Source: Bacteroidaceae bacterium
GTDB taxonomy: Bacteria > Bacteroidota > Bacteroidia > Bacteroidales > Bacteroidaceae
Assembly (NCBI GenBank): GCA_045597745.1
Contig: JAZLKQ010000528.1
Location: forward strand, 2,208 to 66,207
DNA length: 64,000 bases
Reading direction: 5' to 3'
Below are positions 15,313 through 37,206 of this stretch, piece after piece (within the stretch, counting starts at the first letter, position 1; the number at the start of each line of letters is the position of its first letter). A program made the position numbers and the translations under genes. The notes beneath the pieces are model-generated. The model was given only the letters and a program-made list of their open reading frames with translations. It was not told the origin of the DNA and made no database searches.

Positions 15313-17050
15313 TCACTTCACTTTACGTTCAATTGCATTAATCAGGTCTTTTCTCACGGCATCCTGGGCCTTCATGAGTTCCTTGCGTTCATCATCACTC
15401 TCTGCTGCGCGTATTGCCTTGTCCAGGGCATTCAGCTCGCTCTTGAAGTCGTTATACAGCTCCATGATGCGGTAATCACCGTTGTCCATCAGATGCTGCA
15501 GCTTCTTCTTATCGCCAGCCTTCCTTGCTTTCTTGACAACCGTTGCCGTATGCTCGGCCTCTGCCTTGTAATACTGGAACACGTCATTCACATACGCATT
15601 GCGGTATCTCTCATCCGTTGACAAGAACAGACGTGACAGGACCGGGAACTGCCCAAGCTTGAACTCATTTCCGAACCTCTCTCCGAAGCTGCCCGGTATC
15701 TGTCCTATCAGTGCGCCAAGTGTGCCACGGTACAGCTTTTCTGCCGTTGTGCCGACACCACCTGTCACACCCTCAAAGATGTGTTCAAGGTCAGCAGGGT
15801 TGACATTGATGATACCAGCATCGTACTCATCACCGCCACTGATTACGTTCAGCATCTTTGAAACCTCAATCCAGAACTTGCCAGTATTGTTGAATACCTG
15901 GTCATACTTAGGAGTACGTTTCTTCTCCTCTTCCGTCAGGTACTTGTTTTCCTTGCGTATTGCAGCGCCCTTATAGTCCCTGTTCACCCATACCTCAAAG
16001 AACGGACTGGCGATAGAAGGAACAAATGCTGCCACTCCGTCAGTAGGATTGAGCGGCATGACATCAAGCATTGCCTTTAGTACCTCACCCATGAAGTTCT
16101 CATCGGCAGAACGGCCCATGATCTTGTTTGTAGCAATGTCACCAAGAGCATAGAATACTCTCATTTCCTGTGGCAGTGACCATTTGAAGTAAACATGGTC
16201 GTCACCAATCTTTCCACCCAGCAGAAGGTTTGTCCTTCTTGTGAAGTCAGACTGATCCAGGTAATCGTCATCATCGTCCATCATTGCATGAATGATTGCA
16301 TTCAATGCGGCAAGACCTGCATACATACCTACAAACTGGAGTGATTTCCTCTTGTCCTTCTGATACAGCTTATATGTGTTATAAAGGCCCTGTACCGAAG
16401 CATTAAAGAACATGATGAACTTGCGCCCGTTTTCTGGAATCCAGCTGAGTATTGCCGCAATCTTTGCTTCTCTGTCTGTCAGATTTTTGCCGTTCTTCCA
16501 TCTCAGTTTCTTTGCCTCCTCAACAGTAAGACTCTGGCCACTACCCTTGCGGTTGAAGTTTACGGTAATCTCCTTTGCGTCAGCGATGCACTCGCGGATA
16601 TCCTTGCCCTGCTCCCTTGATGTAAGGAACGCAGCGAAACGTGTTATCTGCTCCATGCTCTCACCGAAGCGAATGACATAGTTTGCGGCATTTACAAGAG
16701 CATATTCATCGTGCGAGAGGATTCCTCCACCATTGTAAAGGTCATTCTCCCACTCTTGCGCACTCTTGATCTGGGTGAAGCCCGTCACACCGCCATTCTC
16801 CTTGAACTCCCTGAATCTTTCATCCAGGTATGAGTTACCAAGCGTTCCGTTGGCATCAGCGTTGTTCATCTTGATTACCTTGAGCGCAATTACAAGATTC
16901 TTCCTGAACGCCCTGTTGTATTCAGGATCATTCTTGATATATGATGACATCAAAGCAAACAGAAGGTCTCGCTGTATGTTGCTTACCCAGAACTCAGGGT
17001 TGTATGATGTGCTGATGCCGGAGAAATAGCGCAGCAGCTTTCCAAAGAAA
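15313..17050 (-). other. giant ORF: C-terminal module with hydrophobic helices
   Basis: FFFGKLLRYFSGISTSY..NIQRDLLFALMSSYI (about 16921-17050), AAILSWIPENGRKFIMFFNASVQGLY, and LQFVGMYAGLAALNAIIHAMMDDDDD (16264-16345). Confidence 0.45.
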
Positions 17051-20000: not shown

Positions 20001-23000
20001 GTCTGTCTTCAGGGTAGTCCGTGCGGTCACGTGTGGTATCGGCCTCTGTCACATTCTCTGCACCGACATATATGCCGTCGTTGTCAAAGAACTCATCAGG
20101 CGCAACAGTCATGTCATTCTTGTGGCTATTGTACCAGAACAGACCCTGCTCCATGTCAGCAACCTTCTGCCTTGACTCTTCGTAGAACCTCTTTGCAAGT
20201 TCATCGCTTGCGTCTGCATCAGCATCAGCCTTCAGCGACTCCATTTCTGTACGTTCATCAGCAATCATGCGCTCCAGCTCAGCAGGGATATCCTCATGCT
20301 TGTACTCTGCGCCACCGAATGCCTCCTTGACAATTGCCGGAACATCTGGATGCTCGGTCAGGTCCATGCCGTCATAGTATGTCCTGAACGCTCCGCTAAG
20401 ACCTTTCTCAATGGCAGCTTCACTGCGCTCAATGTCATCCATGTTGGTAACATCAACAGAAGCTATCTGCTCGTTCATGGCTTCATGTGCCTTGCGCTTG
20501 CCTGCCTCTGTAATGCTCAGTCTGTCCGGTGCCAGGAACTTCTGCACCTCTGCATCAACGGCAGCCTTGCCGGAAATCGGCTTGGTGTCTCCTTCAACGC
20601 GCTGTGGCTCACGTCCGGCTTCACGGACAAGAGCGTCAACCTCATCCTTTGTCAGGATCTTGTTGACCTTCATCGCGCCAGTGATAATCCATGGGTCTGT
20701 TGCAGGGTTAGGATTGGTGCGGTACTCATAGTAACCATCCTCCGGCAGTCTCTTGAGTCCTGCAAGGGAGTGCTGGAACTTGCCGCTTGCGGTCATGCCT
20801 TCCTGCATGGCCTCCTCCTGGTAGTTCTTGTCCATAGCATACTCAACTTCTGCCCAGACAAAATCCTTCGGGAACAGCGTCTTGTTGCCATTCTCGTCCT
20901 TGCGGTTGAACTGAAGGGCATACGGAATCTTACCCAGATGCCATCCCGGTCTGTATGCCAGAGTGCCGGAACCGCCCTGCGTTCCCTTGCCGCCCTGCTT
21001 TACCTGTGGTCTGCCAGTCTTGGAGTCAGGAGCCTTCGTGCCTTCCTCTGCGTCAAGCCATACGCCTACAGGAGTATCAACACCGCCCTGGTTTGCAACC
21101 ATCGGTGGATACAGCTTGCCGTCCTTGCCTTTGTAGAACACCTTGTAGCCTACACCCGTCTTCTTCGGTGCTGGCTTCGTGCGGATAGCGGCTTCAACAT
21201 CGCCCTCAACAGGCTCTCCAAGATCAGTCTTGTTGACCAGGTCATACAGCACGCGGTCTGTCACCTGCTCAATGCTGTCAAAGCGCATGCCGAACAGCTC
21301 TGTGCCTACCCAGTTCCAGAACTTTTCCAGGGCCTGCTTCATGCGGTCGCGCAGACGGATAGCCTTTGCTTTCTCAAGTACGCCGTCAGCCTCTGCAATA
21401 GCCTTCTCAGCCTCTGCAATCATCTTCTTGGCATTCTCACTGCCGCTTATGCGTGAAAGCACCTCGCTGGCAATGGCATCATCACTATTCAGGTTCTGAT
21501 AGTTCTCATCAGCAAGCACCTCGTTCCATACGGCTGTACCCTTCAGCAGCTTCACGATGTCTGCCCAACCGGCAGGATTGCGCTTCTGCATGGCCTTTGC
21601 CCACAAGTGAGTGTACTCATGGATAGGAGTGTTCGGATTGATGCCGTCCGGTGACAGGTACACCTTGCCGTCCTTGGCATAGCCGTACACGGTACGGCCG
21701 TTCTTTGAGAACTGTGTCTTGTCAGTGATCTTGATATCCTTGTCGTTGAAGATGACGGCACATTCTTTATCATGCATGCCATTGTACCTGATGCCAACAA
21801 ATCCTGCATCATACAAATACTTGCTTGCATTTTCCTTGCTGCCTTCCTTCTCTGACAAGCGTTCATACAACTGATGGAAATTGTTTATATATCCATGGTC
21901 AACACCATAGGTAAACATATCAGCATACTTACCAAGCCTTCCGGCAATTTCCTTAAGGTAATTCCTATTGTCGTTACCCTCATCAATATAGTTGCTGCCG
22001 TTGTTGTCTGGAATATCTACATTATAGAGAATACCACCAAAATCAACTTTTGAAACCTCAGTCTTTAAATCGCCGACACCTTCCAGTGCGTCCCTTATCT
22101 CATCAATAAGAGCTATGTTGTTTGAGAATGTCTTTATAGCATGTTCATTGTTCTCCTTCTTTGCATCATTGAGCATCTTCTCGTATGACTTCCTGCTATT
22201 TTCAAGGTCAATCATTAGATACTCCTTCCGGTATAGTTCCTTGTTTCTCACGATGCCGTCAAGAAGAGATTTTGCACCATATACAGATGTGTCTGCCGTG
22301 ATCTCCTTGCCTGCAAAGTCAACCGTCAGATACTTGCCAGCCATAGTAGCGGCATACCTTCTGCTTGTGTCGCTATTGAATGCTACATAAGTACCCCAGC
22401 CGTGAACCTGATGACCTTCGCCCTCTCCCATGTGCGAGTGGTCGAATGCGTCAAAGTCTGCGGCAGAGCCATGGTAGGCAACCATGAGTTCCGTTTTCTC
22501 TTCCCGTATTGTTGGATTTGAGAAATCATTCAGTATCTTTGCAACAGATTTAAGTTCTGAACTTGCATCTTCGGGCATGAGGCGGATGAGGCTAACTCCG
22601 AAGAGCCAGTTTAGAACTTTTTCTTTTTCAACCCACCTCAATGAGTTTTTAAGTTCTCCTTCTCTAAGCGAAGACAGTCTTTCAAGCTCCCTGTTTGCAT
22701 CTTTAGGATGAATGCTTCTCACATTGTCTATCTCAGACACGTTGCCATTCTCATCAATCTTTACGGATATTGACAGCTTGCCGCCATTTGCTTCAAGCTC
22801 TGTCACAACAACAATGTTGGGTTTATTGTCACCATGCTTATACACAAGCATTGGTTCCTGTATTGCAGAGGCCAATCCCTTAAGGTCATCTGTTGAAAGA
22901 TTGTGCTTCTTGAGGTGCTTGTTCAAGACGTTAGGCGAAAGGGTAAGCTCTTCTGCATTGATGCCGCAAGCCTTAAGTTTTGCCATTGGCTTGCCAAGGT

Positions 23001-26000
23001 GTAGAAGTTCGTTCTGCGTCTTGTTCTTAAACCTGTCAAGTTCGCTGTCAAAGCGCTCGCTTGCAGACATCCTTTCAACATCGTCACTGAATGCTTCCTT
23101 CTCTGCCTCTTCCTGGCTTACAAGCATCACGTCATCGCCAAGTATGTCAAGCAGCTCATGTGTCACCCACTGCTTGGCATCTGTGTCGTTCTCAAAGGTC
23201 TCGTCACCCTGGGCAATCTGAGCCTCGGACCTCGCCCTTTCATATATAGGGTTAGGCTCCATGAGTCCATAGTCCGCAGCAGATACATAGTCACTGATAG
23301 GGAAGCCGTCAACGCGGTTCTTCAGGTTGATGACATCAAGAACCCTAACATTGAACTTTCTTGCCTCGTCAGCAATCTTTGATGCCGAGTTGGTATTGAT
23401 ATTGTTACCATAGACCACAAACATACCTGCGCCCATGCGTGTTGCCATGTCAGAAGCATCCTTTGCGATAGCGCTCTCATTACCCTCAATGGTGTCGTAT
23501 GGCAGATGTATGTTTCCGACAACACCCATGTCATTAGTGATGACAAGCGCACTGATCTTGTTTCTCAATCCCAGACGCTGTGTTGCGATGTATTCTGCGA
23601 TATCATTTGAGCCGGTGACCCTCTTGCGAACAGTTCCGTTTACGAAGCTGAGTTTATCAAAAGAATATACCTTCTGCTTCTTCTCCTTCTCAGGAGCATC
23701 AAGCATATCTGCAATATCCTTGTCGTAACCATTGAATGTTGCATACTGATTCTTGAACGAGTCAATGATGATTCCATCAGCAACCTTGTCACCAAATGCT
23801 TTATGGAAAGCTTCAAGCATATACCTGTCCTCACGCGAAGGATTAAGATTTCCGCTTGGATGGTTATGAACCATGAATATCTTGTCCGGGATGATGTCGT
23901 TGACAGCCGGAATAATCACACGCAGGTCAACTGAAGTACCAGCAAAGCCTCCTATGCCAAGATGAATGATAGTAGGCTTTCCGTTCTTGACAAGGACAGC
24001 GAAGGAATGCTCCACAGCAGAATCCTGTAAAGTCTTGAAGATATAGGCCACATCCTCGTATGTCCTAATCCTGTTGTTTGATGTGAAGCTGTAATGCTTG
24101 TTCTCGGTGTACTGAGCTTCCACCAGACAGAACTCATCACCTTCTAATTGACGTAACCCGATTTCGGTTGGTCTATTAACCTTCCGTTGTACTCTATTGG
24201 ACCCGGCCCTGTTATTAGCGGCTTCTCCTCCTCTATCCGATACGCTTTCGCTTTCTTCTTCCGATTCATGCAGCAAAGATACATATTCTGTTTCTTTTCC
24301 GTCTGCTGAAGTGTAAACTACGCCTGGCTCATTAAGCATCACTTTGCCATCCTCACCTACCTGCTCGTCTATGACGTTGAAAAGATTCTCAAATGCTCCG
24401 TCAATAGCCGGAATCTCCTCGCCTGCAGGGTATGGGGTATGTTCCCATGCTGCCATATACAAATCTGACTTGTCATAGGTAAGATAGTCTGACGTTCCGC
24501 CGTTGGCCTTGATCCTGCGATCAACGAACGACTCGAAGCAGCGTGCAAACAACTCAACCTTTGTGCTCCAATAAGAAGATGCACGGCCCTTATCGAACCA
24601 GATGCTGTCATCAACAAGACGTGTAGGGATAGTCTTGGTATTGGTCTCAGTATTTCTTCTCTTCTCAAGCGAAGCCTTTGCCTTCTGCAGCCTATCCATC
24701 TGATACCATACATTGTGCATGGTCTTGAACTTGCCGTGTTCTCCAGGCTTTACATCCTTGACAAGCTCAAGGAGCTTCTCTGCTGCTTCACCCTTTGGTG
24801 CAAAATTACCTGCGAACTTTCCGGTAGTAGTCCATTCCCACTTGTAGTCGGTGGAGTTCTTCAGCTCCTCTATCAGCCTGTCGTATTCTGCAAGCTGCTC
24901 AGGTGTAGGCTTGGTCACTACCTGCTCACGCTGCTTGGTCTTACGATTATACTTGTATCGTGTAAGTCCTCTCTCGAACTGCTCTCTGTAGTACTTGGCC
25001 TCGCGGTCAATCTGCTTCAGCATCTTCTCTACCTCAGCCTCAGCGTCACTGACTGCGCTCTCGTTCTCCACCACCTGCTCGGTCATTGCCTTGACGATGG
25101 CATCGAACGCTGACAGGATTTCCTTTCTTGCACCACCTCTGTAGCTGCGGCCATTGGTGAGATAATGATCTGTGCTGTGCTTTTCGGCCTTCCTATCCTG
25201 CTTGTTGTCCATCATACCGAAGTAGTTGTCCAGGGCATGTGCCCACTCATGGGCAAGCGAGCCCGCACCGTTCATCTTAGTCAGGTTGATGACAGCCCTC
25301 GCGTTCTCATAATGTGCAGCACCAGCACCGCGGAATCCTGCATTGCCCGTACCTCTCGCGCCAAACGCAATGCCCAGTTCTCCGTTGAGGCTTATTGCCT
25401 TCGGTGATATGCCAAGCACGGCAGCAAGGTCCATGAGGGAATCATATGCTATGTTCAGCACTGACTGACGTTCCTCTGTGCTGAGCCAGTTGCCGAACTC
25501 ACCGCCACGGAAGCCGAATGTATTCATGAACTGCTCGGTGGTGACGTTCTTGCCCTTCCTGTAGTCCGGCATGTTTGTTCTTGTTACCTCAGTCAGTCCA
25601 GGAATATCAAAGTTCTCGCGCTTATGCTCAACAAGTGACCTTGCGCCTTCAGGTGAAGCAAGATATGCTGCTGCCTCCTCCTTGGTATCGAACTCTGCAT
25701 ACTGTACCTCCTTGCCGTTGCTTGCACGTCTGTAGATAATATGCTTTCCCTTGTCGTTAGTGCCGACACGGAAGCCTACAGAATGTGCCTCGAACACAGG
25801 AAGAACAGCTTCTGCCTCTTCCATGGAGTTAAACACAACAAGGTTACGCTCGGAGTCAACTACAGGATGGTTTATGACACGCTTGAACATGCCCTTACCC
25901 TTCTCTTCCTCCCAGAAGGCTACAAACGGCTTTGTCTCATCATACAAAGGCTTACCCAGAGTGATAACCTCAGACTCCTTTAGAACCATTATCATGTCAG

Positions 26001-29000: not shown

Positions 29001-32000
29001 ACAGCGCAAGCGAAGTGTTTGGGAACCTTTCTTTATGTGCCAGCGCACGTCTGCCAATCTCCTTTGTCCAGTCTGCGCCCTTCTCGTCAGGAAGGAATGT
29101 AGTAAATATGGTGTCTATGTATGCTATCGGCTTTCCGTCAACATCATGTGTTCTCGGCCATTCGTAGTTTCTTCTGGCAGATGTCACGGACTTGTCGATA
29201 TGCACCTCATTACCGGAAGACACGGTTACACCTTCAAGGTCTTCTGCCTCATCAAGGAACGCATCAATAGCCTTGTCTCGTTCCTCCTTGGTGCTTGTCC
29301 AGACGGCATCACCTGTAGGGAACACGGCAAGACCGAACTTGTCGGCTCTGGCTTTCTCCTTTGCTTCAAGCTCAATCTGCTTCTGTGTCTTGTATGCGAT
29401 GCTCTTTTCCAGGCAGTCAACAGCAAAGTCGTACACATGTTCAATGAGTTCCTTGTACTGCGGATATTTCTTCAGCGCAAGCGGCTTCTTTTGTCTTGTC
29501 TTTTCAAGTGCGCGTGTATCACTTTCAATGTCATCAATGTTGCGGAGCCTGCTGCCTTGATAGCATTCTGTTTTTTGAAGCAGTGACTCGATTGCATCTG
29601 TTGCGTATCTGTGCCCCTCCAGTGCAAAATGTACGATACGGTCTGCAAGACTGTTGGCATTCTTGTAAATAAAGAAGTCACCCAGCGCTGCCTTCTGCTT
29701 GTCAGACATCTTGTCTTGCTCATCCTTGTATGAATCAAAGTTCCAAGCCTTTGCAAGCCTTGCAGCCTCTTTCTTAATGCGCTCACGGAAATGCTCCCAT
29801 GTTTCTTCGTCTTCCTGCTCCTCTATACGCTGCTGTGCAAGCATGGTCTGTGCTATGGCAGCACCAGCCTCTGCATGTGCTTCCTGCTCCTTCTTGAGAT
29901 TCTGTGCTGTGGCAATGGCATCCGGCTTCTCTTTGTCGAAGTTGGTAACGTCAAACGCCAGGACGTCATTGTATGAGTCCATTTCTCCCACCATGCCAGA
30001 AGCTTCCGGAAGGTCGCGCACTGCATTGTAGAATGATTTGAGGTATGGACGCACCTCATCACCAAGGTCAGCAATCATGCTTGACGCGTAGTTCACGAAC
30101 TTTCGTGCGCCACGCTCAAGATGATAGACAGCCATTTCGGTACCGATGGCAAGAATCTCTGGATCTATGCCCATGTTCATCTGACCCGTGAGTTTCTTCT
30201 TCATGCGGGCCTTCAACTGCGCATACCTCTCATCAGTAACCAGTCTGTTGCCGGAAGGATTGTGGTTCACATCGCTGTGCTCGTTGACTACAGGAGAAAT
30301 CTGCTCTTCGGTTGCAAATGCTATCTCTTTGCCGGACTTAAGCCTGTAACCATTGTTGTCTGTTCCAGCAGGAATGTAATGGCCGACAATGGTGTATTCC
30401 TTGCCATTGAACATGACATTGGAACCCTGCGGATACTTGAATGACTCCCAGCGACTCTTTTGTGGCTCAGTTACACCTTCCTCGCTCTCGGTGTTTTCCA
30501 CAGCCTGGGCAGGAGTGTTGGCGCTTTCATCTGCCTTCTGCTCCTGCTCGCCAGTCTGTGTGTTGGTATTAGATTGTATGAGTTCTGCGAATGGTACATA
30601 GCCATCAGGCAAGTAAGACTGTCTGTCAGCCTTGCTTACTCCACAGCGAGAAAGAAGAATCTCAACCCATTCCTCGCGTTCTTCTGCGGCCTTTCTGATG
30701 TTATTTAATGATGCCTGTCTTCTGCGCTCGTTAGCTGCACCTATTGTCGTGATAGTGCTTTCCAGATCTTCGTACTTGCCGCCAGCCTCAACCTTGGTGT
30801 TGTTCTTTTTATAGACGCGGCTTGCCCAGTCCTTGTACTCCTTTGCATAGCCAGGAATGTCTGCAAGAATCTTCGCAATAGCCTCACGCACATTGCTTGA
30901 TGTCGCAAGGGCCGTTGCATACTCATTCCTGCCGTGCTTGGCTTCCTGTGCAAAACTGGCCTTCTCCTCATCAAACTTGCGCTGAACCTCATCAGTTGCA
31001 TTGCCATTAGAATCAACAAGCACGTTTCGCGGACGAAGATCCTTAACTATTAGACTTGCGAATCCATGACGCTGACGCGGTGCTGGCTTGGAACCTTCAA
31101 ACTCTGCGTCAACAACATGAATATTGCCATTAGAATCAACAAGCACGTTTCGCGGACGAAGATCCTTAACTATTAGACTTCCGTTTGCATATTCCCCTTT
31201 GCCAACCCTTGAGAAGCCAAGTTGACGCATATAATCGTCTATCTGCTCCTCTGTGCATAATTTTGCATTATTAACAAATCGCTGGCGATATACGACATAA
31301 GCAGTTCCTTCCCCAAAACTTGCAATTCCAACAAGCTCGTATGCAGATTCTGGGAATAAACTATTGAATAGGGCTACTCTTTGCAGCAAATTTGCTATGC
31401 TGCCTCCCGTATGTGACAGATTGTTTACTTTGTAGATATACCCATCTTCCGATAGGTAATTATCATTCTCATCACCAGACTCAAATGGTGTACCGAAATT
31501 GGCTGTGGAAAGTTCGTGCCAAACACCTCTTTCCTTTGCCCATTTGATTGCGGCCGCAGCCTGTTCCTGACCGCTCTTGCCTTTTACTTCTCTTTCAAGG
31601 CTGAGTGCATCTTCCTGTGACGCTCCACTTCCTCCTGGACGTTCACTGGACCTTGATTCCTCAGATACTCCATTGCCTTCTGTGAGTTCTGACGGTGATA
31701 TTCGTTGAGATACTGTGTCATCGTTTTGATTTTCTTCTGCAAAGTTATCATTATTATTTTTTCCAGCAACTTCTGCTGACTGAGTTTTGCCCTTTCTTAC
31801 AAGAGTGATATTTTTTGGGATGTTCTCGCTCCAGGTTGTGCCGTCTTCCTCAAAGTACACATTGATTGCAGGCTGTCCGTTGAAAACAGTCTCCTTGATT
31901 TTCGTGATAGTCTTTTCGCCCTTATAGCCACGGACGTTGATAACATCACCAACTGCAAGCTCGTTGCCATCCTTATCTTTTGCAACATTCTCTTGTTTAT

Positions 32001-35000
32001 TTGAAGCAGCACCATTACCTTTGCTGTCAGAATCATCACGAGCAGAAAGGGGACTGCCGGATACTGATGTATGACTGATGGTGGAACGCCCGCCCACCGA
32101 TGATTTTTTCTCAATATCCTTCTTGTTCTTGTATGGCTCAGCTTTTTCATTCCAGAAGAATGATTTGTGCATTACTATTTTCCCTCCCTCATTATACATT
32201 CTGATAACAACAGCGTAACCTTTACCAATCATTTTGGTGAATGCTACACTACCATTGCTCAGGTCTTTCACATGGTCTGGATTGTTCAGAACATCTTGTA
32301 TCAGGTTGTAATCCTCATGATCAACTTCCGGATGGTGATTAACAGCATGGTCTATAAAATAGCCTTTACCGCAGTATATCCTGTTGTCTTTGAGTGTTCC
32401 ACCAAACAAAGATTGCATCCAGTCAGATGGTATATATGCAATAGGTTCAAGCTTGGCACCAAACTTTGCCACGATATCCTTTAATTCCCTTGCTTCTGCC
32501 CATTCCAAATCAGGATCGTTAAGCCAATCCTGCATTCTCTTCTGCATTTCCTTGGTATGGGCACCATCTTCAAACGATGTCTCTTCTGATTCATTCTGCT
32601 GGCTCGCATGCTTGGCATTGTAATAGTCTGCGGCCTCGGAATAGAGGATGAAGTCCACACCTGGGAACATGGCAGACAGCTCTGCCTTGAGCTTGCTTGC
32701 CACCTCAAAACCTGGAGCGTCCTCTTCGTTGAAGGACATATCATTTATGAGGACGGTAGCAATACCGTTCTCATTTAGTGTCTCTCCCTCGTTTGCTGCT
32801 ATGATGAACAGGCCGTCCCTGTATGCAGAGCCGGACCCTGTACCCATTGCAGCAGCTGCTGCCCTTGTATTCTCGTCAGCACCAAGAGGTGCAGTATAGA
32901 GTGCTGTACGGTCGTGTGAGATACCGTTGGTAAGAAGTTCAACAAGACGTGCAAGCGGATTATCCTTGGCCAATCCATGAGCATCAATGCCTACCGTCCA
33001 GTCAGGAAGGTTGTCAAGATACAGCGTACCCTCAAACTTCGCTGTGGCATCATGGATTGTTTTCTTTGCCCTTTCAACGGTAAGGCCAATCTTGCTGAGT
33101 ATGTTCCTCGCAAGATTCTCAAACTTGTTTACTTGCTCTGCTGGCTCATCCACCACGTCAGGACTGCCCGGAGCTGTGTCTGCTTGTCCTTGCTCTTGAG
33201 TTCCTGCGGTGTTATCAGCTTCTGCTGTGATGCCCAGTTCAGTGCCTCTGCCACTATCTGCGGCTTGTTCTCCTGCGCTTTCCACCACTCCTGGAACTGC
33301 GCTTTCCTCGTCTGCATTGTTTTCAGATCCATATAATGCGTTATAGTATTCGTTAATTTCATTGGCAGGTATCTCCACAAAGACACCGCCATTCAGTATT
33401 GCCTCCTCAAAGATGGTATATTCTTCCCAATTCTCAAAGCCGTAAGCCTGTGCGAATGCGTCCTGTGCATTCTGCTCATCGGCTACTGTCTGTGACTGCA
33501 TGCGTCCCAATTCGCGCTGACGTGCATCGTAGAGACCACGGACAGCGGCATAAGGAGAGTTGTTGCCAAGCACCTCATCAAGGATGTGGTCAAGTATCTC
33601 TGATACCGATGTCATGCCCTGCATGTACTCCGGCATGTTGTTGTATATGCTTTCGGCCACCTCTTCCGGGTACAGACCGCCCTTGTCGCGGTTGGCAAGC
33701 CATGAAATACGCTTCTTTCGCTCTTCCTCGGAGTCGCTGATGGTGTGCGCACCAAGTCCCTTAGTGCCGTTTGTGGCGTTGCCCCAAACGAACTTGTAAG
33801 AAGGAAGGGAACGTGTCACATACTCTGTCCATGACATAGGTTCGCCAAGCTGTGCATCAATCTCTTCAAGCGAAAGATCAGAAGAGTCTGCCTCCATGTC
33901 TATGTTACTGTCAGGTATGTTGATATTCTGCTGCTGAGCAACAGGCTTGTTGTAGCCGTCAATGATAGCCTGCAACTTGTCAATGCGCTGCTGGAGCTGG
34001 TCCTTCTCTGCAATGAGTTCCTTGCGCTCCTTGAAGTCAAGCGTCTTGTTGAACTTCTTCTCATTGTCAGCAACAGCTTTCTGCAGGGTGTTTATGACAA
34101 GGGCAATGTAGTTCTTTGAGTCCTCACCACCATCACCCTTCTGCTCATCGTTCCATGCGGCCCAGCCTTCCGGGTTCATGTTCCAGAACTGTTCTTCATT
34201 GACAGAGCCATCAGCATCAAGAGGAATAAGGTTGCCGTCCTTGTCCCTTGGACGGCCGTCATCTTCAACATCAGGCTTGGCAAGCTCATCAGCCTGCTCC
34301 TCAACGGCATCCTCTGTAGTCTCTTCAACGGCTTTGTTGGCCTCAATCAGTCCTGCAACCTCCGGCATTGTCAGCACAAGACGGATAGGACGGCCAAACT
34401 CATCCTTTGCATAGACCTGCAGGTACAGATCACCAATCTCATTGCTTACCCATTCACCAGTGCCGGTTATCTCATACGGCTGTCCCTCATGGTCAATCTT
34501 GGCAGACACTACAGTGGAACGGAAGTCCTGACGTATGTTCTCAAGCTCCATTTCATGCTTGACCTCTGCTGCATCCATCTGCTCATCGGTCATGACGTTG
34601 ATAGGTGTGCCAAGTGCAGCGGCCGCAACTTCAAGTGAAATATTTTCTGTATTGCCATTGGCATACTTGACAACATAGCCTCCAGGATACTCTGTCTGTA
34701 TTTCGCACATCTTCGGCTCCTCAACGGTACCAAGGTTGAGCTGGACACCTGGCCCAAGGTTCTTCATTGCCTCTTCGCGCTGTGCCTGTTCGTCAGACTG
34801 CATACGCTGTGCCTGGAGTTCTGCCTTGTGTTCCTTGATATAGTTATCAATGTAGGCATCATTGTCCATTGCTCCATGATCAACAATTGAGCCGTCTTCT
34901 ATGCCGTGCTGCAGCATGTCATCATCAACGAAGTGCTTTGTGCCATCCTCACAGATGACAGCACCATCAGCAGACTGGTAGAATCCGCGTGTCACCTTGC

Positions 35001-37206
35001 CGTTCTTGCCGACAAAGTCTATCTGGTGTATCTGCGGCTTTTCCTTGGTCTCATCAAGGTATTCGTATGACTCACCGCCTACGATGTTGCTTACCTCGCC
35101 ATACGCCTGTTCGCGCTCAATATTGTGTATTTCCTCTTCCATGGCCTGACCCATTTCGTTCATTGCCATGCCATGAGCGAGATCCAGGAGCTTTCTATAT
35201 TCCTTCTCATCCTTGCAGAGTGAAGCATAAGGAGCAAGCGCACGACCAATGTCCTCCGGTGTTGCAAAGCGCTTGTTGAAGAGTTCTGCAAGTTCCTCTC
35301 TTGTACCTTCCGGATCTGCGCTGTTACCTACGAGTATATCAGACATCTGTGCCACGTTGCTTGCGTACTGCTTGCTCATGGCTCTCATCTTGCGTATCTG
35401 TGTTGCTCCACTGATGCCTGTCATAAGACCGAACGAAGCAGCCATTTCAAGCTGTGATTCCCATGCTGTGCGCCTTGCACGCTGTGCATCTGTCAGGCCA
35501 TCCTCGCCAACCGTAGTGTTGTCATAGCGCACACCAGCAAGGAAAATGTCACCACCAAACTTGCCGAACTCCTTGCCGGACATGATGTCAATGCCTGGAA
35601 GGTAGCTTGCACCTACCCTTGCTGCATTGCCAATCCATTCCTCGCCCATTTCGCCAAGGAAGCCATTGAAGCCCATTTCCTTCATGAGCTGCACACCTCT
35701 TGCTGATGCTGCCCACTTGCCCATCTGATGCAGTGATACACCGCCCAGTGTTATGCCACCAGCAGCCTTGTCTATGCCTTTACCTACACCGCGCAGTATG
35801 CCGTTCAGTGACGCATCAACAGCGCCACCCATGCCCTCTGACCATACCTCTATGATAGCGTCAAGACCGCCAGAGATTATTGCGCGACCTGTGCCAAGCA
35901 GTTCTCCATCATCGGTGATGGTGTTCATGTTCTCAATGACGGTGTTCCATGATGCAGGCTGTAAAGCAACCTTGGACACAGCTTCAGTGATAGGCTTCTC
36001 AACATACCTGTATAGTCCTGCCTGTGTCTTGGTCATTTTTGAAACACGGTCAGCCATTGCAACCTCATCCTGTATTGATGTCATGAGTTCACGCGACAGC
36101 CATTTTACCATTGCGTTCTCCGACTTGCTCAGTGCCGCACCGATGCCCTTTGTCACTGCACCACTCAGCCAGAACTGAGCCATGAACGCGAGCGATTCCG
36201 TTGCGCCCTGTCCGGCAGAATAGCCCATAGACAAGTCATCTGCACGTCTGGCCTGTGCCAGCTGCATTGCAGTGAATGATTTGAGAAGAGCAGCCTCTGA
36301 AGGTGTCAGTATCCTGTCAATGTCATCAGGAGTAATCTCGTTGAGGTTGACAAGAGATTCCTGGAGCTTCTTATATACCTTGTGAACGCCACGCGCTTCT
36401 GCCGCGTCACTCAGGTTCATGGTAAGCAGTCCAAGATCCATGGCATCCCTCATGCCTTTCCAGTAGTTGACAAGGCCGTTGCTGTCATCGTACTTGCTTG
36501 GTGCTTCCCACATCTTACGCGCATCGTCCATCATGCGGTAAGCCTTGCGGTAGTTGCTCTTCGCGTCCTCACGTCCCTTGTTGGTGGACTCATCAGCCAT
36601 GCGCTGATACTCCTCTGCCGTGTGTGCTGCATTGCGGGCATTCCAGGCATAATCCTCGCCAACAGTAGGGATGGAATAATAGTCACGTCTAAGGCCTTCA
36701 CGTTCCTTGACAAGGTCATTGTAACGTCTTATCATGTCGTAGCCAGCCTGTGAAGGCGCACTCTGATTTGTCTTGATGTCCTTCAACAGCTGATCATATT
36801 CCTGCTGATGTGATTTGAGCCAACCGCCACGCTCAGCGTCATCCTCAAACTCTCCCATCCGCTGGAATGCTTCAAGCTCCTTGCCACGGAAATAGTTGCC
36901 GCGCTCATCGTTCACTACTTTCACGGTTGCATCAGGATGCTCCTTGTAGAGCTGGTCCTTCTTGGCCATGAACTTATCGTAACCGACAGACACACCCTGC
37001 TTGGCTCCGGCAAACTGCACTACAAACGAAGACTGCTTGTCAATGTTGTCACTGACAAGCGGGTCGTAGTCAAATACCTGCTGAACTGTTGCGTTAGGAT
37101 GTTCCTTGTAAAGCTGGTCCTTCTTGGCGTTGTAGGCATCTTCATCTACGAATACACCCTGCTTTGCGCCTTCAAACTGGACATAATACTGCTTCTTGTT
37201 ATCCAT
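15313..37206 (-). CDS. giant polyvalent multi-domain protein (7,297 aa)
   Basis: Uninterrupted ATG..TGA frame. It contains four HExxH-type sites, a RadC-type JAB site, an ART-like H-Y-E module, a kinase-like catalytic loop, a RelE/barnase-type nuclease-like module and C-terminal hydrophobic helices. Confidence 0.9.
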   Translation of the reverse strand: MDNKKQYYVQFEGAKQGVFVDEDAYNAKKDQLYKEHPNATVQQVFDYDPLVSDNIDKQSSFVVQFAGAKQGVSVGYDKFMAKKDQLYKEHPDATVKVVNDERGNYFRGKELEAFQRMGEFEDDAERGGWLKSHQQEYDQLLKDIKTNQSAPSQAGYDMIRRYNDLVKEREGLRRDYYSIPTVGEDYAWNARNAAHTAEEYQRMADESTNKGREDAKSNYRKAYRMMDDARKMWEAPSKYDDSNGLVNYWKGMRDAMDLGLLTMNLSDAAEARGVHKVYKKLQESLVNLNEITPDDIDRILTPSEAALLKSFTAMQLAQARRADDLSMGYSAGQGATESLAFMAQFWLSGAVTKGIGAALSKSENAMVKWLSRELMTSIQDEVAMADRVSKMTKTQAGLYRYVEKPITEAVSKVALQPASWNTVIENMNTITDDGELLGTGRAIISGGLDAIIEVWSEGMGGAVDASLNGILRGVGKGIDKAAGGITLGGVSLHQMGKWAASARGVQLMKEMGFNGFLGEMGEEWIGNAARVGASYLPGIDIMSGKEFGKFGGDIFLAGVRYDNTTVGEDGLTDAQRARRTAWESQLEMAASFGLMTGISGATQIRKMRAMSKQYASNVAQMSDILVGNSADPEGTREELAELFNKRFATPEDIGRALAPYASLCKDEKEYRKLLDLAHGMAMNEMGQAMEEEIHNIEREQAYGEVSNIVGGESYEYLDETKEKPQIHQIDFVGKNGKVTRGFYQSADGAVICEDGTKHFVDDDMLQHGIEDGSIVDHGAMDNDAYIDNYIKEHKAELQAQRMQSDEQAQREEAMKNLGPGVQLNLGTVEEPKMCEIQTEYPGGYVVKYANGNTENISLEVAAAALGTPINVMTDEQMDAAEVKHEMELENIRQDFRSTVVSAKIDHEGQPYEITGTGEWVSNEIGDLYLQVYAKDEFGRPIRLVLTMPEVAGLIEANKAVEETTEDAVEEQADELAKPDVEDDGRPRDKDGNLIPLDADGSVNEEQFWNMNPEGWAAWNDEQKGDGGEDSKNYIALVINTLQKAVADNEKKFNKTLDFKERKELIAEKDQLQQRIDKLQAIIDGYNKPVAQQQNINIPDSNIDMEADSSDLSLEEIDAQLGEPMSWTEYVTRSLPSYKFVWGNATNGTKGLGAHTISDSEEERKKRISWLANRDKGGLYPEEVAESIYNNMPEYMQGMTSVSEILDHILDEVLGNNSPYAAVRGLYDARQRELGRMQSQTVADEQNAQDAFAQAYGFENWEEYTIFEEAILNGGVFVEIPANEINEYYNALYGSENNADEESAVPGVVESAGEQAADSGRGTELGITAEADNTAGTQEQGQADTAPGSPDVVDEPAEQVNKFENLARNILSKIGLTVERAKKTIHDATAKFEGTLYLDNLPDWTVGIDAHGLAKDNPLARLVELLTNGISHDRTALYTAPLGADENTRAAAAAMGTGSGSAYRDGLFIIAANEGETLNENGIATVLINDMSFNEEDAPGFEVASKLKAELSAMFPGVDFILYSEAADYYNAKHASQQNESEETSFEDGAHTKEMQKRMQDWLNDPDLEWAEARELKDIVAKFGAKLEPIAYIPSDWMQSLFGGTLKDNRIYCGKGYFIDHAVNHHPEVDHEDYNLIQDVLNNPDHVKDLSNGSVAFTKMIGKGYAVVIRMYNEGGKIVMHKSFFWNEKAEPYKNKKDIEKKSSVGGRSTISHTSVSGSPLSARDDSDSKGNGAASNKQENVAKDKDGNELAVGDVINVRGYKGEKTITKIKETVFNGQPAINVYFEEDGTTWSENIPKNITLVRKGKTQSAEVAGKNNNDNFAEENQNDDTVSQRISPSELTEGNGVSEESRSSERPGGSGASQEDALSLEREVKGKSGQEQAAAAIKWAKERGVWHELSTANFGTPFESGDENDNYLSEDGYIYKVNNLSHTGGSIANLLQRVALFNSLFPESAYELVGIASFGEGTAYVVYRQRFVNNAKLCTEEQIDDYMRQLGFSRVGKGEYANGSLIVKDLRPRNVLVDSNGNIHVVDAEFEGSKPAPRQRHGFASLIVKDLRPRNVLVDSNGNATDEVQRKFDEEKASFAQEAKHGRNEYATALATSSNVREAIAKILADIPGYAKEYKDWASRVYKKNNTKVEAGGKYEDLESTITTIGAANERRRQASLNNIRKAAEEREEWVEILLSRCGVSKADRQSYLPDGYVPFAELIQSNTNTQTGEQEQKADESANTPAQAVENTESEEGVTEPQKSRWESFKYPQGSNVMFNGKEYTIVGHYIPAGTDNNGYRLKSGKEIAFATEEQISPVVNEHSDVNHNPSGNRLVTDERYAQLKARMKKKLTGQMNMGIDPEILAIGTEMAVYHLERGARKFVNYASSMIADLGDEVRPYLKSFYNAVRDLPEASGMVGEMDSYNDVLAFDVTNFDKEKPDAIATAQNLKKEQEAHAEAGAAIAQTMLAQQRIEEQEDEETWEHFRERIKKEAARLAKAWNFDSYKDEQDKMSDKQKAALGDFFIYKNANSLADRIVHFALEGHRYATDAIESLLQKTECYQGSRLRNIDDIESDTRALEKTRQKKPLALKKYPQYKELIEHVYDFAVDCLEKSIAYKTQKQIELEAKEKARADKFGLAVFPTGDAVWTSTKEERDKAIDAFLDEAEDLEGVTVSSGNEVHIDKSVTSARRNYEWPRTHDVDGKPIAYIDTIFTTFLPDEKGADWTKEIGRRALAHKERFPNTSLALYGDRLVVTSIKDYFNFMTDVFKPIPFLPKDLKNYKFPEGKEGEVMRAMVANDMYGTATIGKGKNAVTIKYEGYSPQYDEFTFYREHGTGGGSVPVHRVSGESVYSDNFDVEKNTKPDATYSMPADVAFKAEEKRPEPKTNALGVSTSTMSRKESKGAGIKARIALINEKIARIPADDIFAADERAELEKEREKLQKQLDSLGKKETKAETKKGNADAPKAEAKEQKPAGSVPGEKRFKVGGYYTHSDGSGLYKVTGFTEEGLPIMDNLATKVCINGFALAYNGPVANDTAFRMYKTYKMLDAKKLAAKREEYGLDSNDDIIADKKYGINIRDFEGGDTAFADAVYYSITGKFSYQFIDRDLKGAADRHAMNYEGNKQDGKAAIAKTYERLLSLYPQYKEQIETAKKAFEDAADRYAQRQAEYEAKRKKAQELSGVSHAEADAAQQKAIEQAVPYKFSKAVEEEIKKFVIDAHAGVNPATDSKSRAAYGPRLARTVGDDTEYSRYSEMEPTTKACAKLMPVLDRFIGMEKRTDGTFAYYLKDADVLVVARKLEGGRISVSEYTNASWVDGVETYEHSKERKNDVLVEAGIIAGENKAEQPASKENDARGAKAYENRVRNLLTHNPHIVEEGWEPMDTHGGRDVPGPGSDAEMRQIWNKVVNEIKSQDMSNAKFGYGDRFMVDGKEMTVIRILPNGLGKFYYDLSADGTNTYGNVTTMPEWKLEKQEFVYEAGLTAKQYAQIDEMRDRIEAIGKELKNVGNDIFAEANREELINERVSLQHKIDSMLDPYSQQALQEIHDFQVSEYERGKNELKNNKDVTIPELNVNDLRSVFFLTKGGYYYNGNESEQYMLDSLKKRYEEFTSSELLSKRYAELIPVIKKIIDEHDNTTPPTGTDGPATEVESKTEELAENPTENAVKANAVKVKAQLASVNIEEPITERPEDFGEKIGGARKDEVITRKRTGKKSDVPAWRKKYQFRNYTQDKQDLIAEFEKQKGFKIPAADMIMVLKESEVITLGKPLYDETKPFVAFWEEEKGKGMFKRVINHPVVDSERNLVVFNSMEEAEAVLPVFEAHSVGFRVGTNDKGKHIIYRRASNGKEVQYAEFDTKEEAAAYLASPEGARSLVEHKRENFDIPGLTEVTRTNMPDYRKGKNVTTEQFMNTFGFRGGEFGNWLSTEERQSVLNIAYDSLMDLAAVLGISPKAISLNGELGIAFGARGTGNAGFRGAGAAHYENARAVINLTKMNGAGSLAHEWAHALDNYFGMMDNKQDRKAEKHSTDHYLTNGRSYRGGARKEILSAFDAIVKAMTEQVVENESAVSDAEAEVEKMLKQIDREAKYYREQFERGLTRYKYNRKTKQREQVVTKPTPEQLAEYDRLIEELKNSTDYKWEWTTTGKFAGNFAPKGEAAEKLLELVKDVKPGEHGKFKTMHNVWYQMDRLQKAKASLEKRRNTETNTKTIPTRLVDDSIWFDKGRASSYWSTKVELFARCFESFVDRRIKANGGTSDYLTYDKSDLYMAAWEHTPYPAGEEIPAIDGAFENLFNVIDEQVGEDGKVMLNEPGVVYTSADGKETEYVSLLHESEEESESVSDRGGEAANNRAGSNRVQRKVNRPTEIGLRQLEGDEFCLVEAQYTENKHYSFTSNNRIRTYEDVAYIFKTLQDSAVEHSFAVLVKNGKPTIIHLGIGGFAGTSVDLRVIIPAVNDIIPDKIFMVHNHPSGNLNPSREDRYMLEAFHKAFGDKVADGIIIDSFKNQYATFNGYDKDIADMLDAPEKEKKQKVYSFDKLSFVNGTVRKRVTGSNDIAEYIATQRLGLRNKISALVITNDMGVVGNIHLPYDTIEGNESAIAKDASDMATRMGAGMFVVYGNNINTNSASKIADEARKFNVRVLDVINLKNRVDGFPISDYVSAADYGLMEPNPIYERARSEAQIAQGDETFENDTDAKQWVTHELLDILGDDVMLVSQEEAEKEAFSDDVERMSASERFDSELDRFKNKTQNELLHLGKPMAKLKACGINAEELTLSPNVLNKHLKKHNLSTDDLKGLASAIQEPMLVYKHGDNKPNIVVVTELEANGGKLSISVKIDENGNVSEIDNVRSIHPKDANRELERLSSLREGELKNSLRWVEKEKVLNWLFGVSLIRLMPEDASSELKSVAKILNDFSNPTIREEKTELMVAYHGSAADFDAFDHSHMGEGEGHQVHGWGTYVAFNSDTSRRYAATMAGKYLTVDFAGKEITADTSVYGAKSLLDGIVRNKELYRKEYLMIDLENSRKSYEKMLNDAKKENNEHAIKTFSNNIALIDEIRDALEGVGDLKTEVSKVDFGGILYNVDIPDNNGSNYIDEGNDNRNYLKEIAGRLGKYADMFTYGVDHGYINNFHQLYERLSEKEGSKENASKYLYDAGFVGIRYNGMHDKECAVIFNDKDIKITDKTQFSKNGRTVYGYAKDGKVYLSPDGINPNTPIHEYTHLWAKAMQKRNPAGWADIVKLLKGTAVWNEVLADENYQNLNSDDAIASEVLSRISGSENAKKMIAEAEKAIAEADGVLEKAKAIRLRDRMKQALEKFWNWVGTELFGMRFDSIEQVTDRVLYDLVNKTDLGEPVEGDVEAAIRTKPAPKKTGVGYKVFYKGKDGKLYPPMVANQGGVDTPVGVWLDAEEGTKAPDSKTGRPQVKQGGKGTQGGSGTLAYRPGWHLGKIPYALQFNRKDENGNKTLFPKDFVWAEVEYAMDKNYQEEAMQEGMTASGKFQHSLAGLKRLPEDGYYEYRTNPNPATDPWIITGAMKVNKILTKDEVDALVREAGREPQRVEGDTKPISGKAAVDAEVQKFLAPDRLSITEAGKRKAHEAMNEQIASVDVTNMDDIERSEAAIEKGLSGAFRTYYDGMDLTEHPDVPAIVKEAFGGAEYKHEDIPAELERMIADERTEMESLKADADADASDELAKRFYEESRQKVADMEQGLFWYNSHKNDMTVAPDEFFDNDGIYVGAENVTEADTTRDRTDYPEDRHKGESDVDFANRVVGYFSRRFNSLKEIVVVPTDVTAEELSQKTGMSLEDAEKFVSGKIRKYNGWNLEAPANKILLIANGRTTTESVLRTLFHENLHAFFKMVYSSLSREDFIIEKARFARTFKESIKYAVQDFWGEDYYEFVSNLDGAEEFAAHTIARAITTSRIVELMDYMNSWQRDFVERYLDNIDYGTDEEGKEGNEGGYGLAEGASGGITEGFKGREGRRRRGVLRTAQSAVENPQQIGYETEEEKKNSRGVPGSERGTEVSDGRPEGTRGDGSIGVHDSQVSLSKRDAALNAAKEIGVEIEFLSREEMPAGHKFSMGFWRNGKIVLCLANNISANEAVKTVLHEAVGHEGLRKLIGDEKMDAFCRWIYRNLPKSRRAIIDLAREHHGWDISQATEEYIAGLAETDNYSSEPGEQSAWEKIKSWLRSHVPFFRVPLSGNDIRYMLFQSYHANRADSLDVAVRRAKLAHRLGFSYDVLEAKAKAYDIIRDREVEERMENDAANMYNNSESYIFSRFKEITVDMYSSVNHLVEALEKSSGKKVKAFEDVRLALNQAPGKGKEAIDKWRENYAKPLYKVVHEIVEKTGMSIEEVEDYLMKKHGIERNEVFAKRDARNDYKAEYDSAINAIENSDLTELEKDAKKKKAEARLQKHLDAIEKGTDPKYKEYREKDYGGLTGIYSELDDKFDPQKGANESEEHYNARYLEARKPMFETIAETEAQAAKDVADVENRMGDLADELWKRVNAATKSTLKMQYDYNLISREQYNNLTSMFEYYVPLRGFKENTANDFYSYDSSYTGSAFVHPIIEAKGRKSQATSPIGYIGAMASSTVAQGEKNSAKLALYYCAGNRADNNLLKISDVWYEKEVDADGEPVRDDNGRLVFRPVYPPLSESLTSEEARASYEAWEAGMKRKAKEGLAFKGTSKLDLNHSVIHISESEKNAHIIKFKVMGKDMMMYVNGNPRAAQAINNELNVEVSYSKTFFFGKLLRYFSGISTSYNPEFWVSNIQRDLLFALMSSYIKNDPEYNRAFRKNLVIALKVIKMNNADANGTLGNSYLDERFREFKENGGVTGFTQIKSAQEWENDLYNGGGILSHDEYALVNAANYVIRFGESMEQITRFAAFLTSREQGKDIRECIADAKEITVNFNRKGSGQSLTVEEAKKLRWKNGKNLTDREAKIAAILSWIPENGRKFIMFFNASVQGLYNTYKLYQKDKRKSLQFVGMYAGLAALNAIIHAMMDDDDDYLDQSDFTRRTNLLLGGKIGDDHVYFKWSLPQEMRVFYALGDIATNKIMGRSADENFMGEVLKAMLDVMPLNPTDGVAAFVPSIASPFFEVWVNRDYKGAAIRKENKYLTEEEKKRTPKYDQVFNNTGKFWIEVSKMLNVISGGDEYDAGIINVNPADLEHIFEGVTGGVGTTAEKLYRGTLGALIGQIPGSFGERFGNEFKLGQFPVLSRLFLSTDERYRNAYVNDVFQYYKAEAEHTATVVKKARKAGDKKKLQHLMDNGDYRIMELYNDFKSELNALDKAIRAAESDDERKELMKAQDAVRKDLINAIERKVK
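18940..18960 (-). other. giant ORF: zincin-like site 4 (HEAVGHE)
   Basis: VKTVLHEAVGHEGLRKLIG, read from the reverse complement of ctcatggccaactgcctcatg. Confidence 0.45.
19714..19728 (-). other. giant ORF: zincin site 3 (HENLH)
   Basis: RTLFHENLHAFFK, read from the reverse complement of gtgcagattctcgtg. Confidence 0.5.
20620..21160 (-). other. giant ORF: conserved-looking module of unknown function (GYKVFYKGKDGKLYPP...LAYRPGWHLG...)
   Basis: The motif string YKVFY..GKLYPPMV..GVWLDAEEG..LAYRPGWHLGKIPYA..DFVWAEVEY..DGYYEYRTNPNP..WIITGAMKV was read from the translation. Confidence 0.35.
21607..21621 (-). other. giant ORF: zincin site 2 (HEYTH)
   Basis: NTPIHEYTHLWAKAM, roughly 35-40 aa C-terminal of the ART-like module. 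Confidence 0.55.
21720..22490 (-). other. giant ORF: ADP-ribosyltransferase-like (H-Y-E) module
   Basis: LMVAYHGSAADFDAFDHSHMGEGEG..HGWGTYVAFNSD ... GFVGIRYNGMHDKECAVIFNDKDIKI. The order His, Tyr, Glu matches PARP/diphtheria-toxin-type ARTs of polyvalent proteins. Confidence 0.5.
23740..24060 (-). other. giant ORF: RadC-like JAB/MPN metalloprotease module
   Basis: IFMVHNHPSGNLNPSREDRYML (HNHPSG at 23851..23868) is the canonical RadC/JAB HxHPSGxxxPSxxD signature. Confidence 0.8.
24480..25530 (-). other. giant ORF: zincin site 1 module (FGFRGGEFGNW ... HEWAH ... ELFARCFE)
   Basis: FMNTFGFRGGEFGNW (25486-25530), GSLAHEWAHALDNYFG (HEWAH at 25237..25251) and VELFARCFESFV (about 24515-24570). Confidence 0.55.
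26141..26182 (-). other. giant ORF: EDFGEKIGGARKDE motif
   Basis: Read from the reverse complement. It sits N-terminal to the zincin-1 module after a Thr/Pro/Glu-rich linker. Confidence 0.3.
31000..31180. repeat. perfect 58-bp direct repeat (31000..31057 and 31123..31180), in frame, inside the giant ORF
   Basis: attgccattagaatcaacaagcacgtttcgcggacgaagatccttaactattagactt occurs twice, 123 bp apart (41 codons). It duplicates SLIVKDLRPRNVLVDSNGN. Confidence 0.95.
31000..31560 (-). other. giant ORF: protein-kinase-like module
   Basis: GYIYKVNN (Lys), then LIVKDLRPRNVLVDSNGNIHVVDAEF, which resembles the HRDLKPxN catalytic loop plus a DFG-like metal-binding Asp. Confidence 0.45.
32145..32435 (-). 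other. giant ORF: barnase/EndoU/RelE-type nuclease-like (PBECR-like) module
   Basis: LKDNRIYCGKGYFIDHAVNHHPEVDHEDYNLIQDVLNNPDHV..GSVAFTK..GYAVVIRMYNEGGKIVMHKSFFW. The pattern recalls PBECR modules of polyvalent/MuF proteins. Confidence 0.4.
36895..37194 (-). repeat. giant ORF: tandem duplicated N-terminal module (2 x about 45 aa)
   Basis: YVQFEGAKQGVFVDEDAYNAKKDQLYKEHPNATVQQV and VVQFAGAKQGVSVGYDKFMAKKDQLYKEHPDATVKVV. The DNA copies are clearly related. Confidence 0.85.

Follow-up and report, generated by a model that had tools for sequence, protein, structure and literature searches.

The polyvalent proteins described by Iyer et al. (2017; PMC5512222) bring many conflict-type domains together in one polypeptide, encoded beside the portal-terminase packaging genes of phages. 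They comprise 2 to 15 domains, are "often >2,000 aa" long, and draw on a set that includes ADP-ribosyltransferases (ART), HExxH and HExxxH metallopeptidases, PBECR nucleases, RadC, LPD domains and a truncated kinase, a type that these authors placed in Bacteroidetes (pro)phages; the metallopeptidases were proposed to process the polyvalent proteins, with P1 DdrB cited as the precedent. We analysed a stretch of 64,000 nucleotides (nt; hereafter the window) from a Bacteroidaceae bacterium (assembly GCA_045597745.1, contig JAZLKQ010000528.1), in which a single gene, occupying 34% of the window, encodes a protein of 7,297 aa, termed here the giant protein. It likewise joins many conflict-type domains in one chain, beside portal-terminase genes, and has the above domain set in common with the polyvalent proteins, while differing from the published description in its length and in that about 15% of it has no detectable relative. 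Judged by its domains, the giant protein is a phage polyvalent protein sensu Iyer et al. (2017), belonging to an LPD38-terminated family, and it appears to be built of fixed ends and an exchangeable interior cargo.

Experimental information is available for several homologues. Gp47 of the Stx phage phi24B (vb_24B_48, about 2,810 aa) is abundant in virions and invisible in the cryo-electron microscopy reconstruction, and was proposed to be encapsidated and ejected (phi24B preprint), while knock-down of PTXU04_00025, an LPD38 protein, impairs infection of the laboratory host. In the Bcep22-like phages, the "DarB-like" proteins Bcep22 gp75 and JC1 gp69 are, as here, the products of one giant gene; both are virion-associated, JC1 gp69 (4,515 aa; 22% of the JC1 genome) having been detected by mass spectrometry in CsCl-purified virions of this Bcep22-type phage (PMC9144972). 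Their BcepIL02 and DC1 relatives share the C-terminal module of the giant protein, and phrog_10089, a family labelled DarB-like, has both the central and the C-terminal modules in common with it. The Bcep22-like gene, however, lies at the end of the morphogenesis module, whereas in the window the giant gene lies beside the portal gene, and one Bcep22-like record is described as a transglycosylase/helicase/methylase, domains not found in the giant protein. P1 DarB itself, a large head-packaged protein that is injected to protect the incoming DNA, offers a functional analogy. Its defining methyltransferase and helicase are absent from the giant protein in the Pfam and NCBIfam scans (all Pfam, NCBIfam and PHROG scans were run on overlapping 820-aa tiles), neither giving a match even at E<=5 per tile, so that the label "DarB-like" was rejected for the giant protein. 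The comparison with DarB drawn in a first-pass annotation of the window, made by a model, is therefore a loose one.

A giant gene adjoining the portal gene is likewise found in two cultured temperate phages of Bacteroides, BS-TP4 (gp3, 5,391 aa; PQ571277) and BKO1-TP3 (gp55, 5,553 aa; PQ571269), described in a paper that is silent on DarB and polyvalent proteins (PMC12694917). Taken together, these two phages show the layout of the window, with an integrase (in the BKO1-TP3 stretch only), small ORFs (open reading frames), an ORF of about 370-390 aa, the giant gene and the portal gene, then a terminase on the opposite strand, a capsid gene and a reverse transcriptase, before which they also carry a large target gene of a diversity-generating retroelement (DGR). 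They have Bacteroidales hosts, as do the genomic relatives of the giant protein. The central and C-terminal modules are shared with the giant protein, the latter at just 27-28% identity, whereas the cargo of BS-TP4 gp3 is a different one, consisting of ddrB-ParB, InPase and a Sno-type helicase (AAA_34, Helicase_C_4).

The giant ORF is one genuine late gene. The uninterrupted ATG..TGA frame from 37206 to 15313 on the minus strand, covering about one third of the window, had been reported in the first-pass annotation and was recovered by ORF listing and translation, the sole stop (TGA, 15315-15313) being the last codon; from the base composition, 7,297 stop-free codons would arise by chance with a probability of about 1e-169. 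We regard it as a single real gene because (i) the frame is open far beyond chance, (ii) an NCBI contig of 67,070 nt, 33% of which is this gene, already has the identical protein annotated, (iii) the giant genes of the cultured phages BS-TP4 and BKO1-TP3 are uninterrupted at the same position, and (iv) the ORFs of relatives stitched from IMG/VR contigs range in length from 5,690 aa to 7,902 aa or more. The protein contains 18 cysteines only. Self-comparison revealed no internal protein repeats at E<=1e-3; a looser comparison showed a weak, non-significant recurring helical motif (..REEL..E...LQ..ID.L; E 0.1-1.4) at aa ~1061, 2915, 3502, 4710 and 6375, at or near module borders, which may represent a common linker or cleavage context.

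Membership in the LPD38-terminated polyvalent family is assigned because named Pfam, NCBIfam and PHROG families match the giant protein, because its C-terminal half is collinear with phi24B vb_24B_48, and because its predicted C-terminal fold matches predicted structures of large phage polyvalent proteins. Several characteristic effector domains are present in one chain, the gene is a phage gene located among portal-terminase and head genes, and an LPD38-containing module of about 1,200 aa lies at the extreme C-terminus. Using BLASTP against vb_24B_48, matches were obtained for the zincin (44% identity, E 2e-40), LPD1 (8e-8), MuF_C (1e-3) and the LPD38 region (3e-27, 25% identity), in the same collinear order zincin - LPD1 - MuF_C - LPD38 module. 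The giant protein is 2.6 times as long as gp47, from which it differs by an extra N-terminal part of about 3,800 aa and by several insertions between the common modules, among them the RadC and ART-like ones. The first-pass annotation had placed the protein in the polyvalent class, as the matches to named families now support, and had considered its size and its kinase to go beyond what is described; neither of the latter two claims held, as the same family contains many proteins of 4,000-7,700 aa and Kinase-PolyVal is named for Bacteroidetes (pro)phages in the 2017 paper itself.

To assess the breadth of this family, the C-terminal 1,200 aa were used as query in an exhaustive search without profiles; 5,141 clusters matched at E<=1e-3, and a cut-off of E<=1e-30 left 1,114. 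Among the best 147 representatives, the median length was 4,805 aa; 57 had at least 5,000 aa, 15 at least 6,000 aa, and 5 at least 7,000 aa (7,050, 7,283, 7,524, 7,568 and 7,703 aa). Scanning one genome per species, we found relatives of the C-terminal module at 206 places; most of the 79 loci listed belong to Bacteroidales of human and ruminant guts, and some lie inside contigs of hundreds of kb. The IMG/VR relatives came from an alignment-based scan, a scan of IMG/VR with the single C-terminal module sequence having found no close relative, and in most of the 80 loci the ORF ran past the 10-kb upstream flank. The size of the giant protein is not unusual within its family. A literature search returned nothing relevant on "largest phage protein" or on giant polyvalent proteins in Bacteroides phages, and no paper discussing very large versions, although such proteins abound in public data.

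By BLASTP and phmmer, three pieces of the giant protein proved to be widely shared, namely the N-terminal ~1,095 aa, a central stretch of ~120 aa and the C-terminal ~1,290 aa, amounting together to about 2,500 residues; the residues outside them are patchily shared or unshared among relatives. Across 316 family sequences, 83% of the residues have a homologue in some member. The kinase, zincin and RadC modules occur at differing positions across relatives, and in the relative of 7,902 aa or more the cargo includes ddrB-ParB together with a Zeta-toxin kinase. We read the architecture as one of fixed ends with exchangeable interior cargo, because wide sharing is confined to the three modules, because the positions and content of the cargo differ, and because the G+C content at third codon positions (GC3) drops in the cargo.

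The N-terminal module shows 22-32% identity to the extreme N-termini of relatives (BLASTP) and stands at the N-terminus of 52 family representatives. Within it, a tandem pair of beta-alpha-beta repeats occupies aa ~5-100, and the residues E519, E522, E523, G526 and R530 of a helical, Gly-rich stretch are invariant; the duplication of the N-terminal module noticed in the first-pass annotation is visible in the DNA (98 nt, 77% identity, 162 nt apart). Its AlphaFold2 (AF2) model is poor (predicted local distance difference test, pLDDT, 65; predicted template modelling score, pTM, 0.35), except for the two small starting repeats and some beta domains. A Foldseek search of this model against the PDB gave nothing significant, and hints to Tudor/KOW/PWWP folds (E 0.2-0.8), coming from a low-confidence model, are not evidence; the SH3/KOW-sized linkers that had been suspected amount to these hints. 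The central module is the most conserved piece, with 48-65% identity where found; one comparison showed it in all nine relatives, another in six out of eight large relatives and not in the remaining two. It also occurs within stand-alone InPase proteins of ~409 aa, on contigs of 200-400 kb.

The C-terminal module, which also matches phrog_14770, shows 27-50% identity to relatives, and almost all of the representatives listed have it at, or close to, their C-terminus. It opens with the site HEAVGH (aa 6083), kept as HE[AG]V[AG]H in nine out of nine relatives checked; as a sequence motif, this site matches the HExxxH metallopeptidase class of Iyer et al. The AF2 model of the C-terminal 1,200 aa is mostly helical and usable (pLDDT 78, pTM 0.68). 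With Foldseek it gave 81 matches among BFVD predicted structures at E<=1e-3, of which the listed ones belong to large phage proteins, either polyvalent or uncharacterised, and no fold match in the PDB (best E 0.19). The sole segment nearing membrane-helix hydrophobicity is aa 6958-6976 (Kyte-Doolittle mean 1.55), and the hydrophobic C-terminal helices and membrane module of the first-pass annotation reduce to this one weak segment.

Between the ends lies a predicted cargo consisting of a PBECR3 RNase-like module, a truncated kinase, a CLCA-type zincin with LPD1, a RadC/JAB domain, MuF_C, an ART-like module, two further HExxH modules and an orphan block (Table 1). The PBECR3, Kinase-PolyVal, LPD1, RadC, MuF_C and LPD38 scores are all above the Pfam thresholds, and the CLCA_X-type zincin also matches phrog_616 and phrog_30335; a sequence search of PDB chains with the whole protein returned RadC as the only match. 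All motifs previously listed are present, at aa 3678 (FGEKIGGARKD), 3986 (HEWAH), 4447 (HNHPSG), 5196 (HEYTH), 5827 (HENLH) and 6083 (HEAVGH), the three HExxH sites comparing with 0.22 expected by chance. The HEY[KT]H site recurs in relatives of the giant protein, and the phrog_30118 module is 74-75% identical to two relatives. The ART-like module keeps its AYHGS and HGxGxYVA (H and Y) motifs in all four aligned relatives. In the Pfam and NCBIfam scans of the tiles, neither a lytic transglycosylase nor any other domain for wall degradation came up. Of the enzyme modules claimed from the letters, the barnase/RelE-type nuclease, the kinase-like catalytic loop and the RadC-type JAB site were each recovered by a profile above threshold; profile support extends to PBECR3, the kinase, the CLCA_X zincin, RadC and MuF_C, and the ART-like match falls just short of its threshold. 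Structure searches of the two ends produced no significant PDB match.

Only two details of the giant protein are unusual, the orphan block and an in-frame repeat within the kinase. The orphan block, corresponding to the 15% mentioned above, had no match in Pfam, PHROG, NCBIfam, the 316 family sequences or a search of 5.8 billion proteins, and its GC3 resembles that of phage core genes. The repeat is an exact direct repeat of 58 nt, which doubles the catalytic-loop peptide SLIVKDLRPRNVLVDSNGN of the kinase (aa 2010-2028 and 2051-2069) and is situated where the low-GC3 kinase module has its 3' edge. Recombination may have left it as a scar, it might act as an on/off switch, or it could be an error of the assembly; recombination between the two copies would remove 41 aa, the VVDAEF strand included. 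Several cargo modules have a GC3 of 0.33-0.46, the kinase module standing at 0.33, and values of 0.44-0.48 were seen in several cargo stretches other than the kinase, versus ~0.6 in core genes; the low values fit recent acquisition of these modules.

Overall, we favour as the probable reading that the two ends form a conserved delivery scaffold carrying exchangeable enzymes. The whole would be packed into the head, leave it at infection and probably be cleaved by the protein's own zincins. The giant protein would be made together with the head genes, because its gene is upstream of the portal gene and its stop lies 1 nt from the next ORF start, and would then be built into the capsid, a step shown for homologues only. 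That it is packaged and injected is a reasonable inference, because homologues sharing the C-terminal module are virion proteins by mass spectrometry. At infection it would leave through the portal and tail channel, with the DNA or ahead of it. CLCA proteins undergo autoproteolysis. By this token, and by the P1 DdrB precedent (Iyer et al.), the zincin domains may cut the protein into separate enzymes. The conserved ends would serve delivery or ejection, and the cargo enzymes, to judge from their domain families, would modify host proteins and RNAs and so blunt defence.

Several points weigh against this reading. The experimental data concern homologues, none of them longer than 5,000 aa, the closest studied ones having just 21-25% identity in the C-terminal module, and the giant protein itself is known from sequence. 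Its enzyme activities, including the zincin activity and the zincin substrates, are predictions from domain families. The H-Y-E ART-like module of the first-pass annotation stays putative: the ART-PolyVal match is just below threshold and spans only profile positions 3-60 of 140, and the Glu (ECAVIF) is kept in two of the four aligned relatives, the other two having Pro. A conduit role of the C-terminal module is unsupported by structure, because Foldseek found nothing resembling its model among the ejection and internal-core proteins with structures in the PDB. Finally, the exact 58-nt repeat could be a local assembly error.

Other explanations were weighed against the same evidence. The giant protein might be dispensable counter-defence cargo like P1 DarB, packaged and injected, and needed only on hosts with particular restriction or abortive-infection systems, its ends being packaging tags. 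The PHROG label "DarB-like antirestriction" of related families, the conflict-type enzymes of the cargo and the fast cargo turnover between relatives, as arms-race genes would show, all speak for this; we nevertheless judge it unlikely, as the giant protein lacks the defining methyltransferase and helicase of DarB, its conserved ends, with ~2,400 aa, far exceed what a packaging tag needs, the C-terminal module is kept in more than 5,000 clusters, and PTXU04 requires its LPD38 protein to infect a laboratory host efficiently. This last requirement also suits a purely structural ejection or internal-core protein forming an envelope channel, like P22 gp7/16/20 or T7 gp14-16, with enzyme-like modules that are degenerate or serve wall or membrane penetration. 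Such a role was proposed for gp47 by the phi24B authors, and the podovirus-type head genes of the phage and the small Ala/Gln-rich ORFs just upstream are in keeping with it. We found, however, no sequence match in the PDB apart from RadC, no fold likeness of either conserved end to a solved structure, among which any deposited ejection proteins would be counted (Foldseek), no lytic transglycosylase or wall-degrading domain (Pfam, NCBIfam), and one weakly hydrophobic helix in place of strong membrane segments, while the well-matching kinase, RadC and PBECR profiles and the presence of HNHPSG argue against plain degeneration; a purely structural role is accordingly quite improbable in our estimation.

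Least credible is that the protein is an unpackaged cytoplasmic late polyprotein, or that the frame is an assembly artefact or a decaying gene. The 58-nt repeat is indeed of the kind that short-read assemblers mis-join, and the virion data come from homologues only, but the frame is open over 21.9 kb, far beyond chance as calculated above, and 83% of the residues are matched in other members of the family. Intact genes that are just as long, and whose ends are the same and in the same order, are known both from isolates obtained independently and from metagenomes, and homologues have been found in virions; together these points make this explanation very unlikely.

The window as a whole is that of a temperate phage of Bacteroidales with a P22-like portal, an SU10-like capsid protein and a tyrosine integrase. 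Using megablast with the giant gene and the neighbouring 25 kb, we found no DNA-level match among GenBank phages. Membership of the phage in the "Quimbyviridae" was not shown, and the Quimbyviridae paper is silent on DarB, polyvalent or giant proteins. A portal homologue was recovered at 112 related loci, and at the listed ones its position is downstream of the giant gene. One base separates the giant stop from the ATG (15311) of a 901-aa ORF, and the giant start lies 32 nt from the end (37239) of a 373-aa ORF. This spacing agrees with the first-pass annotation; the 373-aa ORF is Ala/Gln-rich (15% Ala, 11% Gln). The description of the 901-aa ORF as structural is unsupported, as it had no match in Pfam and no significant match in the PDB. 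Matches over its full length were confined to the closest relatives, in which they too separate the giant gene from the portal gene. A 207-aa ORF, also Ala/Gln-rich, is kept in 20 related loci, upstream of the giant gene in those examined. Profile scans assigned neither the 373-aa nor the 207-aa ORF to a family, and they are possible candidates for small internal or ejection proteins. A reverse transcriptase gene is present here as in the DGR-bearing relatives BS-TP4 and BKO1-TP3; the giant gene was rejected as its target, the template/variable repeat pair being absent from the window, and the expected DGR target gene of ~2,600 aa probably lies beyond the window start. Tandem repeats of 27 nt were seen at 53762-53869, a plus-strand region outside the giant gene, as three overlapping 54-nt copies at 27-nt spacing.

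Table 1. Positions in the window of the giant gene, its modules and the neighbouring genes (aa, residues of the giant protein; GA, Pfam gathering threshold; pI, isoelectric point)
Feature	Coordinates	Strand	Evidence or description
Giant gene, whole ORF	15313..37206	minus	7,297 aa, 818 kDa, pI 5.2 (ORF listing and translation)
Conserved N-terminal module, aa 1-1095	33922..37206	minus	BLASTP and family search
PBECR3 nuclease-like module (barnase-EndoU-colicin-RelE fold), aa 1605-1684	32155..32394	minus	PF18812, 33.1 bits vs GA 30
Kinase-PolyVal module, aa 1880-2036	31099..31569	minus	PF18762, 104 bits
Exact 58-nt direct repeat, in frame	31000..31190	minus	period 123 nt
Central helical module, aa 2318-2440	29887..30255	minus	phrog_10089, phrog_14770 and phrog_938 matches
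Orphan block, aa 2540-3607 (1,068 aa)	26386..29589	minus	no detectable homologue
CLCA_X-type zincin metallopeptidase, aa 3878-4044, HEWAH at 3986	25075..25575	minus	NF041907, E 2.9e-39
LPD1, aa 4205-4281	24364..24594	minus	PF18796, 62.9 bits
RadC-like JAB domain, aa 4383-4483, HNHPSG at 4447	23758..24060	minus	PF04002, 39.7 bits; PDB 2qlc, E 4e-4
MuF_C (PBECR-type) domain, aa 4762-4864	22615..22923	minus	PF18819, 51.9 bits
ART-PolyVal-like module with long insert, aa 4904-5170	21697..22497	minus	PF18760, 29.2 bits, below GA 31.2
HEYTH zincin-like module, aa ~5183-5331	21214..21660	minus	common to relatives at 36-49% identity
phrog_30118 module, aa 5349-5530	20617..21162	minus	PHROG match, E 6e-40
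Conserved C-terminal module, aa ~6006-7297 (~1,290 aa)	15316..19191	minus	LPD38 and PHROG matches
LPD38, aa 6979-7162	15721-16272	minus	Pfam, 112 bits
901-aa ORF	12606..15311	minus	phrog_32516, function-unknown family
P22-like portal gene	9325..11304	minus	phrog_156 and PF16510
Terminase-like ORF	6684-8861	opposite strand	recognisable gene
SU10-like capsid protein gene	3254-4960		recognisable gene
Two Ala/Gln-rich ORFs, 373 and 207 aa	37239..38983	minus	directly upstream of giant gene, by composition
Tyrosine integrase gene	41311-42390		recognisable gene
RecT gene	45302-46129		recognisable gene
Reverse transcriptase gene	62542..63927	minus	phrog_1423

The giant protein is a large member of a known and very common phage polyvalent family, and brings no new principle; the value of its gene is that of a well-mapped example, with clear module borders, signs of recent acquisition, an orphan block and an in-frame kinase repeat. 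That one third of the genome is spent on one 818-kDa protein means that this protein must pay its way. A tentative idea, which we hold to be possible though doubtful, is that the ends, ~2,400 aa without a solved-fold match, are an uncharacterised, essential protein-delivery scaffold of podovirus-like phages, able to pass a chain of more than 7,000 residues down the tail and to take up almost any cargo; if so, the orphan block and other unassigned stretches would encode new kinds of counter-defence activity. Prophages of gut Bacteroidales commonly carry members of this very large family, and, with interior modules swapped between relatives, its genes amount to a ready collection of candidate enzymes against host defence, along with a natural means of carrying them.

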